From Kofleriaceae bacterium (GTDB taxonomy: Bacteria; Myxococcota_A; Polyangia; Haliangiales; Haliangiaceae), in NCBI GenBank assembly GCA_046597055.1, contig JBKJLC010000044.1, positions 1-21,694 of the forward strand: a DNA stretch of 21,694 nt. Reading direction: 5' to 3'. The position numbers and the translations under genes are program-made. The first letter of the stretch is position 1. Every line of letters begins with the position of its first letter. Positions 4,044 to 14,445 of the stretch are shown here, piece after piece. Under the pieces are notes generated by a model. The model had not been told where the DNA came from. It made no database searches and was given only the letters and a program-made list of their open reading frames with translations.

Positions 4044-4057
4044 TGAAACATGTTCTA
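4044..4057. promoter_or_regulatory. KstR-like operator palindrome 1 (TGAAACATGTTCTA)
   Basis: Matches TnnAACnnGTTnnA. Lies 15 nt upstream of the SCP2 start and is identical to the copy at 14432. Confidence 0.8.
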
Positions 4058-4933
4058 CCGCGGCAGTAAAGCCGACGGCACCGCCGGCGTCAAGGCCGAT
4101 CCCGCCCGGGTCGCGCGGGCGGTGTCGGTCGCCGCGAAGTGCTCGACCAGCACGGCGTTGAGGCGGTCCGCACACTGGTGGAGGATCGCGTGGCCGGCGT
4201 CCTCGAACTCGACCAGGCGGGAGTTCGGGATGAGGCGGTGCAGCCGATCGAGCGCGCGCGGGTGGATCAGCGCGTCGCGCCCGGCCTTGATGACCAGCGT
4301 CGGCGTCGCGGCCAGCGCATGCAGCCGGCGCGCGGTGCGGTGGCTCAGCACCGAGGCGAGCTGGAGCAGGTGGCCCCGGGCCGGCGCGACGTTGGCGATC
4401 TGTTCGCTCAGCGCACGGCGGAGCGGCGCGACGTCGATCGTGCGCAGGTACTCGGCGGGGAAGATCAGGCGCTCGAGCATGCTGGCGCGCGACCCGCGCG
4501 GGCCCAGGAAGCCGCGGCCGAACATCAGCAGGCCACGTGGCGGCGGCACGACGTTGCGCAGCCCGCCGGCGTGGGTGGCGATGAGGGTCAGGCTCCGCAC
4601 CCGGCCGCGCCAGCTCAGCGCGACCTCCTGCGCGATCATCCCGCCCATCGAGACGCCGACGACATGGGCGTCGGCCCAGCCCAGCTCGTCGAGCACCGCG
4701 ATCGCGTGCCGGCCGAGGTCGTGCATCGACGCCGGCCGACGATGCGCCAGCGTGGTCTGGCCGGTGCCGGCGTTGTCGAGCCACGCGACCCGGTGGCGCG
4801 CCGCCAGCGGCCCGATCTGGTTGAGCCACATGCGCCCGGGCGCGCCGAAGCCCATGACCAGGAGCACCGGGCTCCCGCCGTGGCCGGCGGTCTCGTAGTG
4901 GACGCGGGCGTCGGGGAGCTGGATGAACGTCAT
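4055..4933 (-). CDS. Alpha/beta-fold hydrolase, 292 aa
   Basis: C-terminal part of ORF 4055..6112 from ATG 4933: PVLLVMGFG, DNAGTGQT, nucleophile elbow GVSMGG, acid in GRDALI, His in DAGHAI. Confidence 0.92.
   Translation of the reverse strand: MTFIQLPDARVHYETAGHGGSPVLLVMGFGAPGRMWLNQIGPLAARHRVAWLDNAGTGQTTLAHRRPASMHDLGRHAIAVLDELGWADAHVVGVSMGGMIAQEVALSWRGRVRSLTLIATHAGGLRNVVPPPRGLLMFGRGFLGPRGSRASMLERLIFPAEYLRTIDVAPLRRALSEQIANVAPARGHLLQLASVLSHRTARRLHALAATPTLVIKAGRDALIHPRALDRLHRLIPNSRLVEFEDAGHAILHQCADRLNAVLVEHFAATDTARATRAGSALTPAVPSALLPR
4065..4093 (-). promoter_or_regulatory. Putative sigma70-type promoter for the SCP2-NMO-ALDH-ferredoxin operon
   Basis: Minus strand TTGACG(4093-4088)-N17-TTTACT(4070-4065), embedded in the 3' end of the upstream hydrolase gene. 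The operator lies just downstream. Confidence 0.55.
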
Positions 4934-4941
4934 GGACGCTT

Positions 4942-5976
4942 TCAGGCGCGGGCGTCGCGCCGGTCGGGGACGAGCACGATCCGGCCGCGCAGGCCGCCGG
5001 CGGCGACCAGCCGCTGGGCGCGATCGGCGTCGGCGAGCGGCAGCCGGTCGTGGATCGGGACGGTCAGCGCGCGCTCGGCATGGGCGGCGAGCACCGCGGC
5101 CATGTCGGCGCGGGTCGCGCCCGACGAGCCGATGATCTGCAGCCCGCGCGTGATGATGTAGCCGAGGTTGAGCTCGACCCGCGCGTCGACCACGTTGCCG
5201 ATCGCGACCAGCCGGCCGCCGACGTCGAGCGACCGCAGCGCCGCGTTGAAGGTCGGGGCGCCGACGCAGTCGATCGCGACGTGGAGCGGGCCTCCGGGCA
5301 GGCGCTTGTGGAAGCCGGCGCCGTCGTCGACGATCACCGCGCTCGCGCCCATCGCCTCGGGCACGTCGGCGTGGTCGGCCCGCCGGACCACGGCGACCAC
5401 GGTGGCGCCCATCCGCACCGCGACCTGGATCGCGGCCGCGCCCACCCCGCCGTTGCCGCCGGTCACCAGCACGCGCGACCCGGCGCGGACGTCGGCCCGG
5501 CGCAGGCCGCGCCAGGCGGTGCCGAGCGTGCAGTGGAACACCGCGGCCAGCGCCGGCTCGACGTCGTCGGCCATGCGATAGAAGCAGCCCTGCGGCGCCG
5601 ACAGCCAGCGCGCATAGCCGCCGTCGATGATGAGGCCGAGCACCGCGGCGGCCCGCACGCACAGCGAGGTGTCGCCGGCGACGCACGCCGGGCAGGTCCC
5701 GCACGAGTTGCGGTGCATGGTCGCGACCCGGTCGCCCACCTTCCACTCGGTCACGTGGGACCCGACCGCGACCACCCGGCCGACCGCCTCGTGGCCGGGC
5801 GTGATCGGCACCCGCACGAACGCAAACCGGCCGGCGCGATCGATGCAATCGCGGCCGCACACCCCGCAGGCCTCGACCTCGATCACGACCTGATCGCCGG
5901 TGGCCTCGGGCTGGGCCCCGTCGGGCTCGACCACCAGATCGGTGGTCCATCCCACCTGCACCATGCGCGCGGGCAT
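4942..5976 (-). CDS. Zinc-dependent medium-chain dehydrogenase/reductase, 344 aa
   Basis: C-terminal part of ORF 4942..7590 from ATG 5976 (TGATG overlap with the SDR stop): ACGVCGRD, PGHE, structural Zn site CGTCPACVAGDTSLC, Rossmann motif TGGNGGVG. Confidence 0.93.
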   Translation of the reverse strand: MPARMVQVGWTTDLVVEPDGAQPEATGDQVVIEVEACGVCGRDCIDRAGRFAFVRVPITPGHEAVGRVVAVGSHVTEWKVGDRVATMHRNSCGTCPACVAGDTSLCVRAAAVLGLIIDGGYARWLSAPQGCFYRMADDVEPALAAVFHCTLGTAWRGLRRADVRAGSRVLVTGGNGGVGAAAIQVAVRMGATVVAVVRRADHADVPEAMGASAVIVDDGAGFHKRLPGGPLHVAIDCVGAPTFNAALRSLDVGGRLVAIGNVVDARVELNLGYIITRGLQIIGSSGATRADMAAVLAAHAERALTVPIHDRLPLADADRAQRLVAAGGLRGRIVLVPDRRDARA

Positions 5977-12831: not shown

Positions 12832-12852
12832 CCGCGCGATCAGATCGCGCGG
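12832..12852. terminator. Palindrome at a convergent gene junction, possible bidirectional terminator
   Basis: CCGCGCGATC-A-GATCGCGCGG spans the ligase stop codon; no U-tract. Confidence 0.35.
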
Positions 12853-14399
12853 TCGCGGCCGGCCCAGAACGGGTCGCGCAGCTTGCGCTTGTAGAGCTTG
12901 CCGTTGGGATCGCGCGGCATCTCGGCGATGAAGTCGATCGCGCGCGGCAGCTTGTACTTGGCGAGCCGGGTCGAGGCGAAGTCGAGGAGGGCGGCCGAGA
13001 GGTTGGGGCCGGCGGCGGCGGTCGGCGACAGCTGGACGACCGCGCGGACCTGCTCGCCCCAGTCCTCGTCGGGCACGCCGAACACCGCGGCGTCGGCGAT
13101 GTCGGGGTGCGAGAGCAGGACCGCCTCGATCTCGGCCGGGTAGATGTTCACGCCGCCCGAGATGATCATGTCGGCCTTGCGGTCGCACAGGAACAGGAAG
13201 CCGTCGCTGTCGAGGAAGCCGGCGTCGCCGACCGTGAAGAAGCCCTCGTGCCAGGCGTCGCCGGTCTTCTGCTGGTCGCGGTGGTACTCGAACTTGAAGT
13301 TGCCCATGCGGATCCAGACCGTGCCCGGCGTCCCGGCGGCGACCGGCTGGTGGGCGTCGTCGAGGATTCGGATCTCGGAGATCGGCCACGGCTTGCCGAC
13401 GGTGCCTGGCTTGCTCAGCCACTCGGCCGGCGTGCACGCGGTGCCGCCGCCCTCGGACGCCGCGTAGTACTCGTAGATGCACGGCCCCCACCAGGCCAGC
13501 ATGCGCTGCTTGGTGTCGACCGGGCACGGCGCGGCGCTGTGGATGACGTGGCTGAGCGACGACACGTCGTAGCGAGCCTTGACGTCGTCGGGTAGCTTGA
13601 GCAAGCGGTTGAACTGGGTCGGCACCATGTGGCTCGACGTGACCCGGCGTCGCTCGACCAGCTCGAGCATCGCCTGCGGCTCCCACTTGTCCATCAGCAC
13701 CAGCGTGTGACCGAGGTGGAGGTGGTTGGTCGCGAAGTTGAGGACCGCGGTGTGATAGAGCGGCGCGCCGACCAGGTGCACGCCGTTCGAGCCGGGCCGC
13801 ACGCCGAACAGCGACAGGAACAGCGCCTGCTGGGTGGCGACCGTCTCCGGCGGGGCCCCGGTCAGCGGCCGCTTGACGCCCTTGGGCTGGCCGGTGGTGC
13901 CCGAGGTGTAGGTCATCGACGCGCCGGCGGTGCGCTCGGTCGGCGCCGCGGTCGGCTGGCCGGCGGTGAGCTCGGCAATCGTGCGGAAGCCGGCGACCGC
14001 GCCGCCGGCGGTGAACCGGGCCGAGGCCGGGAAGTCGATCTCGGTGCAGGCCTTGACCACCGCGTCGCCGACCCGCGCCGTGGTGATGATCGCGGCGGCC
14101 TCACAGTCAGCGAGGATGTACGCGATCTCGGCGGCGGTGAGGTGCCAGTTGATCGGCGTGATGTACCAGCCGGCCTGGTGGGCGGCGAGGAACGCCTCGA
14201 TCATCGCCGCGCTGTTATCGAGCACGGTGGCGATGCAGTCGCCGGGCTGCAGGCCGAGCGCGCGCAGGCCGTGCACCAGCTGGTTGGCGCCGGCGAGCAG
14301 CGCGCCGGCCGTGATCTCGGTGCCGTCGGGCTCGACCACCGCCACCCACGACGGCGCCTCGCTCGCGATCTTCCAGAATCCGATCTCGGAGGGGCTCAT
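12840..14399 (-). CDS. Acyl-CoA synthetase (bile-acid-CoA-ligase-like / FadD4-like subgroup), 519 aa
   Basis: Start reassigned to ATG 14399 (MSPSEIGFW). YTSGTTGQPKG, APLYHTA, HSAAPCP, YEYYAASEGG, TVGD, DRKADMIISGGVNIYPAEIE, GKLYKRKLR. Confidence 0.95.
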   Translation of the reverse strand: MSPSEIGFWKIASEAPSWVAVVEPDGTEITAGALLAGANQLVHGLRALGLQPGDCIATVLDNSAAMIEAFLAAHQAGWYITPINWHLTAAEIAYILADCEAAAIITTARVGDAVVKACTEIDFPASARFTAGGAVAGFRTIAELTAGQPTAAPTERTAGASMTYTSGTTGQPKGVKRPLTGAPPETVATQQALFLSLFGVRPGSNGVHLVGAPLYHTAVLNFATNHLHLGHTLVLMDKWEPQAMLELVERRRVTSSHMVPTQFNRLLKLPDDVKARYDVSSLSHVIHSAAPCPVDTKQRMLAWWGPCIYEYYAASEGGGTACTPAEWLSKPGTVGKPWPISEIRILDDAHQPVAAGTPGTVWIRMGNFKFEYHRDQQKTGDAWHEGFFTVGDAGFLDSDGFLFLCDRKADMIISGGVNIYPAEIEAVLLSHPDIADAAVFGVPDEDWGEQVRAVVQLSPTAAAGPNLSAALLDFASTRLAKYKLPRAIDFIAEMPRDPNGKLYKRKLRDPFWAGRDRAI

Positions 14400-14431
14400 G
14401 ACGCCGACCGTACACCAGGGCACGGCGAAAA

Positions 14432-14445
14432 TGAAACATGTTCTA
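14432..14445. promoter_or_regulatory. KstR-like operator palindrome 3 (TGAAACATGTTCTA)
   Basis: Identical 14-mer to 4044-4057, located between the two divergent CoA-ligase genes. Confidence 0.82.

Follow-up and report, generated by a model that had tools for sequence, protein, structure and literature searches.

The contig JBKJLC010000044.1 of a Kofleriaceae bacterium, analysed here over its full length of 21,694 bases (the window), carries three copies of a 14-bp palindrome which probably serve as operators of a KstR-like TetR repressor, a protein that would keep five sterol-catabolic transcription units shut until a steroid-derived CoA thioester is present. The switch itself, a TetR-family repressor paired with the KstR palindrome on steroid-catabolic promoters, is a familiar one, encountered here in a phylum for which we found no printed description of it. 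The window corresponds to one contig (C298) of the metagenome-assembled genome (MAG) of an uncultured bacterium, with 8.38 Mb in 303 contigs, 94.17% complete and with an estimated contamination of 7.55%; other contigs of this genome are cited by their numbers, and those of related genomes with a genome handle in front.

The motif in question, TnnAACnnGTTnnA, was derived by Kendall et al. (2007, PMC1995591) from the sequence TAGAAC(N2)GTTCTA of the kstR promoter, and KstR (Rv3574 / MSMEG_6042) binds 29-bp probes as a dimer. Exactly three matches were found in the window. Operator O1 (4044..4057, TGAAACATGTTCTA) lies 15 nt upstream of the ATG of an SCP2 gene (4028, minus strand) and shares bases with the stop codon that ends the preceding hydrolase gene (4055-4933, minus), O2 (6772..6785, TGAAACGTGTTTCA) is situated in the 58-bp divergent region between a short-chain dehydrogenase/reductase (SDR) gene (ATG 6761, minus) and an alpha/beta-hydrolase gene on the plus strand, and O3 (14432..14445), identical to O1, is found where two acyl-CoA synthetase genes diverge, in an intergenic stretch of 121 bp. 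A first-pass annotation of this DNA had reported three KstR-type 14-mers, identical at 4044 and 14432 and variant at 6772, and had considered their recurrence unlikely by chance. All three proved to be exact matches, and 100 dinucleotide-preserving shuffles of the window gave a mean of 0.02 matches, with none of the shuffles reaching three; the G+C content of the window ranges from 68 to 76%, compared with 72.3% for the whole genome. O2 additionally forms the centre of a near-perfect palindrome of 30 bp (6764-6793, with 14-nt arms and a 2-nt centre), which may reflect a wider footprint or a second dimer. Its flanks, GAAG...CTTC, are found again at other sites, both in the same genome (C1:9994) and in relatives (L132, L133, L138).

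The same annotation had suggested that these three sites could cover five transcription units, a count that is plausible from gene order and gene overlaps. Window genes were picked from the open reading frames by codon usage and compared with Pfam, NCBIfam and PDB sequences. One unit runs rightward from O3 (14521..20394, plus strand, five genes, the first four overlapping by 1-4 nt) and encodes a FadD19-like acyl-CoA synthetase (14521-16137; 680 bits against the NCBIfam model PRK07798, cut-off 543, which we take to be the FadD19 group), KshA (16134-17120; best PDB match KshA 4qdc, 1.6e-65), an SDR (17117-17836), an amidohydrolase (17836-18711; both by Pfam), and a KstD-like 3-ketosteroid dehydrogenase (18754-20394; best PDB match 3-oxosteroid 1-dehydrogenase 7p18, 1.4e-53). 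Leftward from O3 lies a further acyl-CoA synthetase gene of the FadD family (12840-14399, minus; Pfam AMP-binding), for which the best NCBIfam matches, FadD4-like and PRK12406, each stay under their own cut-off. The remaining three units were assigned by Pfam. Behind O1, four genes on the minus strand (786..4028, with intergenic gaps or overlaps of at most 18 nt) encode an SCP2 sterol-carrier-domain protein as the first product (3690-4028), followed by an NMO-family FMN oxidoreductase (2552-3688), an aldehyde dehydrogenase (1004-2533) and a 4Fe-4S ferredoxin (786-1007). The leftward operon behind O2 (4055..6761, minus) comprises three genes, for the SDR (5976-6761), a Zn-dependent alcohol dehydrogenase (4942-5976) and the alpha/beta hydrolase whose stop codon O1 overlaps, while the rightward gene of the O2 region encodes another alpha/beta hydrolase (6820-7686, plus, starting at 6820 or 6904).

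The enrichment of the motif at steroid genes, which the first-pass annotation had put forward as a check, is borne out by a scan of the whole genome. Loose matches to TnnAACnnGTTnnA number 50, compared with 8-15 in five third-order Markov simulations, and the tighter pattern T[AG][AG]AAC[AGC][TCG]GTT[CT][CT]A occurs 20 times, compared with 0-2 occurrences in the simulations. Using a codon-usage-based gene caller made for the purpose (6,453 genes, 87% of the genome coding), 17 of the 20 tight sites were located in intergenic DNA, close to start codons and including promoters of steroid-catabolic genes, while of the other 30 loose matches only 3 were intergenic. The 17 intergenic sites were turned into a weight matrix, which retrieved 19 sites of at least 22.8 bits, 18 of them intergenic, and a low-scoring tail of 29 sites, 23 of which fall in called genes; this separation is partly circular, because the sites used to build the matrix are among those scored. 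The consensus obtained in this way is TGRAACATGTTYYA, and two bases beyond either end an A is favoured. The KstR2 palindrome AnCAAGnnCTTGnT has three matches in the genome, on contigs C39, C56 and C303 and none at a steroid locus; a KstR2 homolog was not searched for directly.

A suitable repressor is encoded close by. The first-pass annotation had proposed a KstR-like TetR protein encoded elsewhere in the genome, and such a protein does exist, although it is found nearer than anticipated, on contig C1, about 10 kb past the right end of the window. It comprises 219 amino acids from a likely GTG start (G000:C1:10076-10735) and combines the domains TetR_N (PF00440, 2.4e-13) and TetR_C_20 (PF17925, 1.2e-9). 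Its top four PDB matches, 5aqc, 5cw8, 3mnl and 5ua2, are all Mycobacterium tuberculosis KstR (E 2.7e-19 to 4.6e-19), with an alignment that spans residues 7-202 of 219 and thereby both domains, whereas the next differently named family follows at 1.7e-8. Its sole NCBIfam match is the KstR model NF033703 (109.4 bits, E 1.5e-31, model positions 6-184 of 185), and a search of the genome with this model returned the C1 protein at 108.6 bits while the other 10 matches reached at most 45 bits, which makes the C1 protein the best repressor candidate by a wide margin. The gene carries its own upstream site, TGAAACATGTTCTA at C1:9994-10007, 69 nt before the GTG, with a weaker AGAACATGTT repeat 30 bp beyond it, and this site separates the repressor gene from a divergent operon for KstD-like, polyketide-cyclase-like and FadD3-family proteins.

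Conservation in 40 relatives points in the same direction. The KstR-like gene was found in 14 of them, including 8 of 16 in the same genus and members of three other families, and at 13 of 15 loci (own locus included) the KstR-like match is preceded by an exact site at a distance of 32-125 bp; of the other two, one lacks a site and one has a site only at -993. Similarly, a fadD19-like gene is present in 13 of the 40 relatives, 12 of which also have the repressor, and a counterpart of O3 lies 22-119 bp upstream at 10 of 14 fadD19-like loci (own included), namely at all 10 closer ones; the four loci without a site show the greatest divergence (56-59% identity), and of these, three stand directly behind another gene and one (L117) is cut by the contig end. 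In an alignment of the 10 orthologous intergenic regions, the 14 operator columns, all invariant, are the only long invariant block. The SCP2 gene occurs in 11 of the 40 relatives, and O1 lies at -29 to -31 from its ATG, again with 14 of 14 columns invariant, in all nine same-family loci; beyond the family, one locus has sites at -55 and -135 and two have none. One same-family copy of the repressor gene (G021:C5:26606-27175, L098; 66% identity) has no operator within 1.5 kb, and its genome gave no fadD19-like or KshA-like match; this copy may have changed its targets or lost its regulon.

For the SDR gene at 5976-6761 no ortholog was found at E ≤ 1e-70 in the 40 relatives, and the conservation of O2 was therefore checked by synteny. 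Comparison by blastn of 36 kb of G009:C129, from the same genus, with C298 and C1 revealed one colinear cluster on a 51.7-kb contig of G009, in the order C298 769-20395, a gap of 1.4 kb, and C1 267-16271, from which it follows that C1 continues the window. Exact counterparts of all three window sites are present in G009 (11459, 13417 and 15946), that of O2 (13417) being an identical site with the same flanks, and the alpha/beta hydrolase gene 6820-7686 is syntenic as well. The window stretches lacking a G009 counterpart are 7690-12839, the NMO gene 2552-3688 and the SDR gene 5976-6761; as NMO and SDR are missing there, members of a single genus differ in the gene content of these operons although their operators are the same. 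The 5.1-kb block 7690-12839, which splits the steroid cluster and carries no operator, looks like an insertion. It encodes an eCIS_core-domain protein (7690-9399, minus, 569 amino acids), a secreted-looking transglutaminase-elicitor protein with two PPC domains (9609-11474, minus, 621 amino acids) and a 318-amino-acid protein of no assigned family (11863-12819, plus), all without steroid assignment.

Promoter elements were read as hexamers by eye, backed by their conservation in relatives. The putative promoter of the SCP2 operon (4065..4093, minus) combines a -35 element TTGACG (4088-4093), a 17-nt spacer and a -10-like TTTACT (4065-4070), followed on the minus strand by 7 nt, the operator, GGGGG and the ATG; O1 thus starts 7 nt downstream of the -10 and would cover the transcription start. 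CTTGACG is invariant in nine of nine relatives and TTTACT is kept in seven of the nine. The putative leftward promoter at O2 (6770..6798, minus) consists of TTGACG (6793-6798), a 17-nt spacer that holds O2, and a -10-like TTCACT (6770-6775), which overlaps the operator and stands 8 nt before the SDR ATG; the corresponding cgtcaa block, 7 nt from the operator, is also present at the O2 counterpart of G009. Rightward from O3, a putative promoter (14454..14482, plus) is formed by TTGACA (14454-14459), beginning 8 nt past O3, a 17-nt spacer and a -10-like CAGCAT (14477-14482); TTGACA is kept in 9 of 10 relatives, with (C/G)AGCAT 17-18 nt later in most. For the leftward direction, a -10-like TACGGT (14407..14412, minus; TAGGGT in relatives) stands 7 nt before the ATG at 14399 within a CCTACACCA block that is conserved in 8 of 10 relatives, and the -35 position that goes with it would share bases with the left half of O3. 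The -10 elements proposed for the leftward fadD (14399) and the SDR (6761) are thus only 7-8 nt from the ATG and no Shine-Dalgarno sequence is visible, which suggests leaderless mRNAs for both genes.

On this basis, a dimer of the KstR-like protein would bind each 14-bp palindrome, blocking the SCP2 promoter just downstream of its -10 at O1, occupying both spacer and -10 in the leftward promoter of the SDR gene at O2, and, at O3, covering the -35 position of the leftward fadD promoter while abutting the -35 of the rightward fadD19-kshA-kstD promoter. The repressor would be negatively autoregulated through its own site. Release would be expected from a 3-oxo-steroid-CoA produced by the CYP125-like and FadD19-like enzymes of the regulon itself, as for mycobacterial KstR, which has been co-crystallized with 3-oxocholest-4-en-26-oyl-CoA (3OCh-CoA) and 3-oxo-bisnorcholenoyl-CoA (4-BNC-CoA) (PMC5389471).

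Outside the window, the sites mark much of what such a pathway would require, as judged from homology (Pfam, NCBIfam and best PDB relatives). On C117, an enoyl-CoA hydratase gene and two sites are followed by genes for a CYP125-like P450 (1e-166 to a reconstructed CYP125 and about 1e-103 to M. tuberculosis CYP125, both steroid C26-monooxygenases), an HsaA-like protein (best named relative '3-HSA hydroxylase' 2rfq, 1e-92), HsaC/BphC-like, HsaD/BphD-like and HsaE/G/F-like proteins and a FadE. C1 carries a flavin reductase gene and two fadE genes, a site, genes for an SDR, a FadD3-family ligase (735 bits vs an equivalog cut-off of 657) and a KstD-like protein, and then the site before the KstR-like gene. 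Three site-bearing sets are located on C48: the first consists of a site followed by genes for a ChsH2-domain protein, thiolase-like proteins (PRK08313, 678 bits) and two FadE proteins; the second of another kshA, a site, and genes for an acyltransferase, an SDR, two MaoC-type hydratases, a luciferase-like oxidoreductase and F420-related proteins; and the third of an SDR gene, a site, and genes for an enoyl-CoA hydratase (PRK07938, 389 bits), two CoA-transferase subunits, an NMO-family protein, another hydratase and a FadE. The two-subunit CoA transferase of the third set is ipdAB-like and its hydratases are of the echA type, and side-chain genes of the chsH/ltp2/chsE-like kind are likewise marked by sites. 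Overall, homologs of KshA, KstD, HsaA, HsaC, HsaD and HsaEFG as well as of ring C/D genes, and hence the aerobic 9,10-seco pathway, are represented; KshB, a 3-beta-hydroxysteroid dehydrogenase and cholesterol oxidase were not identified.

Further sites precede genes of other kinds. Behind operator-like sites on C1 (10952, with a one-mismatch copy at 11104) lies a compact operon (C1:11175-18694, L001) for an ABC ATPase, two MlaE proteins, a second ABC ATPase, two MlaD proteins and a 792-amino-acid protein of no known family, which is a candidate for the diderm counterpart of the actinobacterial Mce4 sterol importer. On C70 (361-5330 and 8259-10014, L005), sites stand before two unannotated genes together with one for a 1019-amino-acid EGF/Sushi-repeat protein, and before a gene for a MYXO-CTERM Ig-domain protein, with two SPFH/Band-7 genes between the two operator-marked sets. 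A site precedes a GMC oxidoreductase gene on C161 and a gene with a weak 4HBT thioesterase match on C31. As separate observations on C48, genes of coenzyme F420 metabolism (CofD, a CofE-type ligase, CofH/CofG-like radical SAM enzymes, an NADP-F420 oxidoreductase and a luciferase-like oxidoreductase; C48:11548-14886 and 18574-20945, L003 and L004) lie within or beside operator-marked steroid operons, which may point to a step of steroid degradation that depends on F420 or to a block derived from actinobacteria; an IS200-like (Y1_Tnp) transposase gene (C48:6591-7337, L003) is located between the side-chain operon and the second kshA.

The distribution of the system was surveyed in 401 genomes drawn evenly from the phylum, our own included, with thresholds of E ≤ 1e-35 for KstR-like, E ≤ 1e-50 for KshA-like and E ≤ 1e-90 for HsaA-like proteins; since related genomes are not independent, the results are given as counts and not as a probability. 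A KstR-like protein was found in 121 genomes and KshA-like proteins, with up to five copies each, in 111. Both were present in 93 genomes, the repressor only in 28, KshA only in 18 and neither in 262. HsaA-like proteins occurred in 59 genomes, 52 of which also had the repressor, and in one genus the genes for KshA, the repressor and HsaA are no more than 5 kb apart in all 18 sampled genomes. Several genomes of the host's class that have all three genes (genus g27) are near-complete, in 4-20 contigs, and may come from cultured organisms. At distant repressor loci (45-58% identity), an exact site lies at most 190 bp upstream in 16 of 26 cases, with one-mismatch versions in several others.

Several observations weigh against the proposed KstR-like regulon and have to be set beside this evidence. 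Concerning the promoters, the first-pass annotation had placed each site at a predicted promoter; this holds in so far as the hexamers are conserved in relatives, but a generic sigma-70 scan of 3600-15000 flagged no promoter-like site (0.4 expected), near an operator or elsewhere. The accompanying terminator scan of the same stretch gave two terminator-like sites (2.5 expected), and this generic promoter/terminator scan was uninformative for the present high-G+C genome. The hexamers themselves are weak, with 3-4 of 6 positions matching in the -10; a site upstream of the rightward -35, as at O3, is an unusual place for simple occlusion, and the second, weaker site that follows the -10 at O3 in several relatives has no equivalent in our genome. 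Furthermore, 3 of the 20 tight sites lie inside called genes. As to the repressor, its identity to M. tuberculosis KstR amounts to 58 of 196 alignment columns (about 30%; about 58% in the helix-turn-helix), which leaves strict orthology short of established, the GTLY..F.SK helix shared with KstR is common to many TetR proteins, and the score of 109 bits misses the NF033703 equivalog cut-off of 280, for which reason we name the protein KstR-like and not KstR. With respect to distribution, the 28 of 121 repressor-bearing genomes without a KshA-like match at the threshold, the same-family G021 among them, indicate that the link between the regulator and steroid genes is not universal, and a KstR-like gene was found at E ≤ 1e-20 in none of the five named RpoB relatives of the host (a Myxococcales MAG, two Deltaproteobacteria MAGs, Cystobacter fuscus and one more). 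Finally, the GMC gene of C161 was considered as a cholesterol oxidase gene and rejected, its best relatives being alcohol and choline oxidases.

Some of these points could be taken to mean that the palindromes are bound by some other factor, or represent a non-regulatory repeat, and that the TetR protein of C1 is unrelated to them. At least 11 TetR-type matches to the KstR model exist in the genome, and the shared helix-turn-helix motif is, as said, generic to the family. Such an explanation would leave unaccounted for the site that precedes the KstR-like gene itself at most close and distant loci, the co-occurrence of repressor and KshA in 93 genomes as opposed to 28 and 18 with only one of them, the intergenic position of most tight sites near start codons, and the agreement of the operator with an experimentally bound KstR motif (PMC1995591). 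The 14-bp core is also invariant while its flanks diverge, which argues against a mobile repeat. We therefore consider this explanation very improbable.

Alternatively, the sites could be genuine KstR-like operators in a regulon for another substrate, for example bile acids or C19 steroids that lack a side chain, polycyclics resembling hopanoids or terpenoids, or branched lipids. The mycobacterial KstR regulon was itself first described as a lipid-degradation regulon (PMC1995591), and the repressor-bearing genomes without KshA, the GMC enzyme that does not resemble a cholesterol oxidase, and the left operons of the window, whose SDR, Zn-dependent alcohol dehydrogenase, two hydrolases, NMO-family protein and aldehyde dehydrogenase have no specific steroid assignment, would all fit such a role. 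In addition, neither an oxidosqualene cyclase (best match 30.6 bits, cut-off 851) nor a squalene epoxidase was found in the 94%-complete genome, so that any sterol would probably have to be obtained from outside. On the other hand, the ring-opening set of KshA, KstD and HsaA/C/D is specific to steroid nuclei, and the regulon includes enzymes of side-chain entry (the CYP125-like P450 and the PRK07798 synthetase above its cut-off) along with ChsH2-domain, MaoC, thiolase-like, acyl-CoA dehydrogenase, SCP2 and Mla/Mce-type genes. We thus regard a substrate other than sterols as unlikely, and sterols as the substrate of the regulon remain the preferred reading.

The host of this regulon is a soil myxobacterium and not an actinobacterium, as the first-pass annotation had suspected in calling the genome non-actinobacterial and myxobacterial-like, and marker genes agree. 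The best relatives of its RpoB protein (contig C173) belong to a 'Myxococcales bacterium' MAG (92% identity), a Deltaproteobacteria MAG (74%) and Cystobacter fuscus (72%), with no actinobacterium among the 79 loci kept. MYXO-CTERM (TIGR03901) gave 26 matches above cut-off and none in 14 control genomes; among distant repressor-bearing genomes, both of the two tested in genus g27 have it but none of three belonging to other classes does, and as a phylum marker it is of no help there. WhiB (PF02467), which is matched in a Corynebacterium control, has no match in the entire genome. An actinobacterial contig, arriving as a binning contaminant or by very recent transfer, would render the regulon ordinary, and the contamination estimate of the MAG as well as the actinobacterial look of the KstR-type site, CYP125, KshA and the F420 biosynthesis genes of C48 might be read in this sense. 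This explanation is already contradicted and is the least probable of those considered: contigs C70, C161 and C115 carry both MYXO-CTERM proteins and the palindrome, the G+C content of the window matches that of the genome, and the cluster is syntenic in G009. Moreover, the repressor and fadD19-like genes share a contig of more than 230 kb in a relative (G023:C44) and the repressor gene resides on megabase contigs in two others (G344:C1 and G124:C1), which excludes a binning artefact. The repressor is, as noted, only about 30% identical to M. tuberculosis KstR, compared with 56-85% among relatives of its own class, and its nearest ESM-Atlas cluster is mostly from Myxococcota.

To place the finding, literature searches were carried out in full text, mostly without subscription journals, and returned no description of KstR, KshA/KstD or steroid catabolism in Myxococcota, in line with the remark of the first-pass annotation that no KstR regulon is described there. 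In their accessible portions, surveys of more than 8,000 RefSeq genomes (PMC4810484) and of 346 metagenomes (PMC5790920) make no mention of Myxococcota, myxobacteria or Deltaproteobacteria, and the available text of a 2026 comparative preprint likewise makes none of Myxococcota or Deltaproteobacteria. The parts consulted of papers on sterol biosynthesis in Myxococcota do not mention sterol catabolism, and those of a 2026 sterol reductase paper name Myxococcota for biosynthesis-type genes only. Among the sampled Myxococcota, about 1 in 4 species carry the repressor together with KshA and about 1 in 7 carry HsaA. From this we propose, tentatively and with slightly more doubt than confidence, that the phylum has long and widely possessed an aerobic sterol catabolism controlled by a single KstR-type repressor, in which one repressor and one 14-bp code would serve uptake, side-chain, ring A/B and ring C/D degradation alike. 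If this holds, Myxococcota, which are predatory and in part sterol-producing, would join Actinomycetota and Pseudomonadota as the third major lineage that degrades steroids and would add a phylum to sterol turnover in soil and sediment. The palindrome would then also offer a 14-bp handle on sterol-responsive genes of uncultured diderms, including candidate outer-membrane uptake genes that actinobacterial models cannot reveal.

Among diderm bacteria, the 9,10-seco pathway is known to be controlled in Proteobacteria by regulators of different families or with different operators, including TesR/TeiR of Comamonas testosteroni and TetR-type repressors of estrogen clusters in sphingomonads, and we know of no proteobacterial steroid regulator reported with the KstR palindrome. 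Within actinobacteria, ring C/D (HIP) catabolism is assigned to a second repressor, KstR2 (Rv3557c), with the palindrome AnCAAGnnCTTGnT (Kendall et al. 2010, PMC3068626). The genes expected of a KstR2 regulon, for a FadD3-family ligase, a two-subunit CoA transferase, enoyl-CoA hydratases, an NMO-family reductase and acyl-CoA dehydrogenases, are present here; however, the KstR2 palindrome is confined to its three occurrences on unrelated contigs, and the ring C/D genes (fadD3, ipdAB-like, echA-type) carry KstR-type sites instead. With no KstR2-type motif at these genes, a single repressor would cover the roles of both KstR and KstR2.

The closest known system is KstR of Mycobacterium, Rhodococcus and Nocardia, from which the present one differs in several respects. 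The host is a diderm myxobacterium with a protein of low identity to KstR that scores far below the family cut-off, the sites extend to ring C/D genes, a compact operon of two ATPase, two MlaE and two MlaD genes takes the place of mce4, and an outer-membrane/lipoprotein cassette and MYXO-CTERM proteins stand behind sites. The likeness, in turn, covers the regulator, its code and its targets. Both repressors belong to the TetR family, the myxobacterial protein being similar to the solved KstR structures over its full length, both have a site in their own promoter, and both have many sites in divergent intergenic regions, the number of strong sites here (about 19) being comparable to the 16 of M. 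tuberculosis and 31 of M. smegmatis, many of which lie between divergent genes (PMC1995591). The targets shared with KstR include kstD, kshA, hsaA-D, cyp125, fadD19-type and fadE genes and an Mce-related transporter. Both systems use the same 14-bp palindrome TnnAACnnGTTnnA, present here as TGRAACRTGTTYYA, in mycobacteria as TAGAAC(N2)GTTCTA and at one M. tuberculosis site as TGAAACGTGTTCTA, and one M. tuberculosis site, AATGAAACGTGTTCTAG, differs in a single base from O3 with its flanks, AATGAAACATGTTCTAG. A near-complete steroid pathway in a soil myxobacterium is thus marked by the same DNA code as in mycobacteria and, if the proposed regulon holds, would provide a natural comparison of one TetR/operator pair kept across two very distant phyla.

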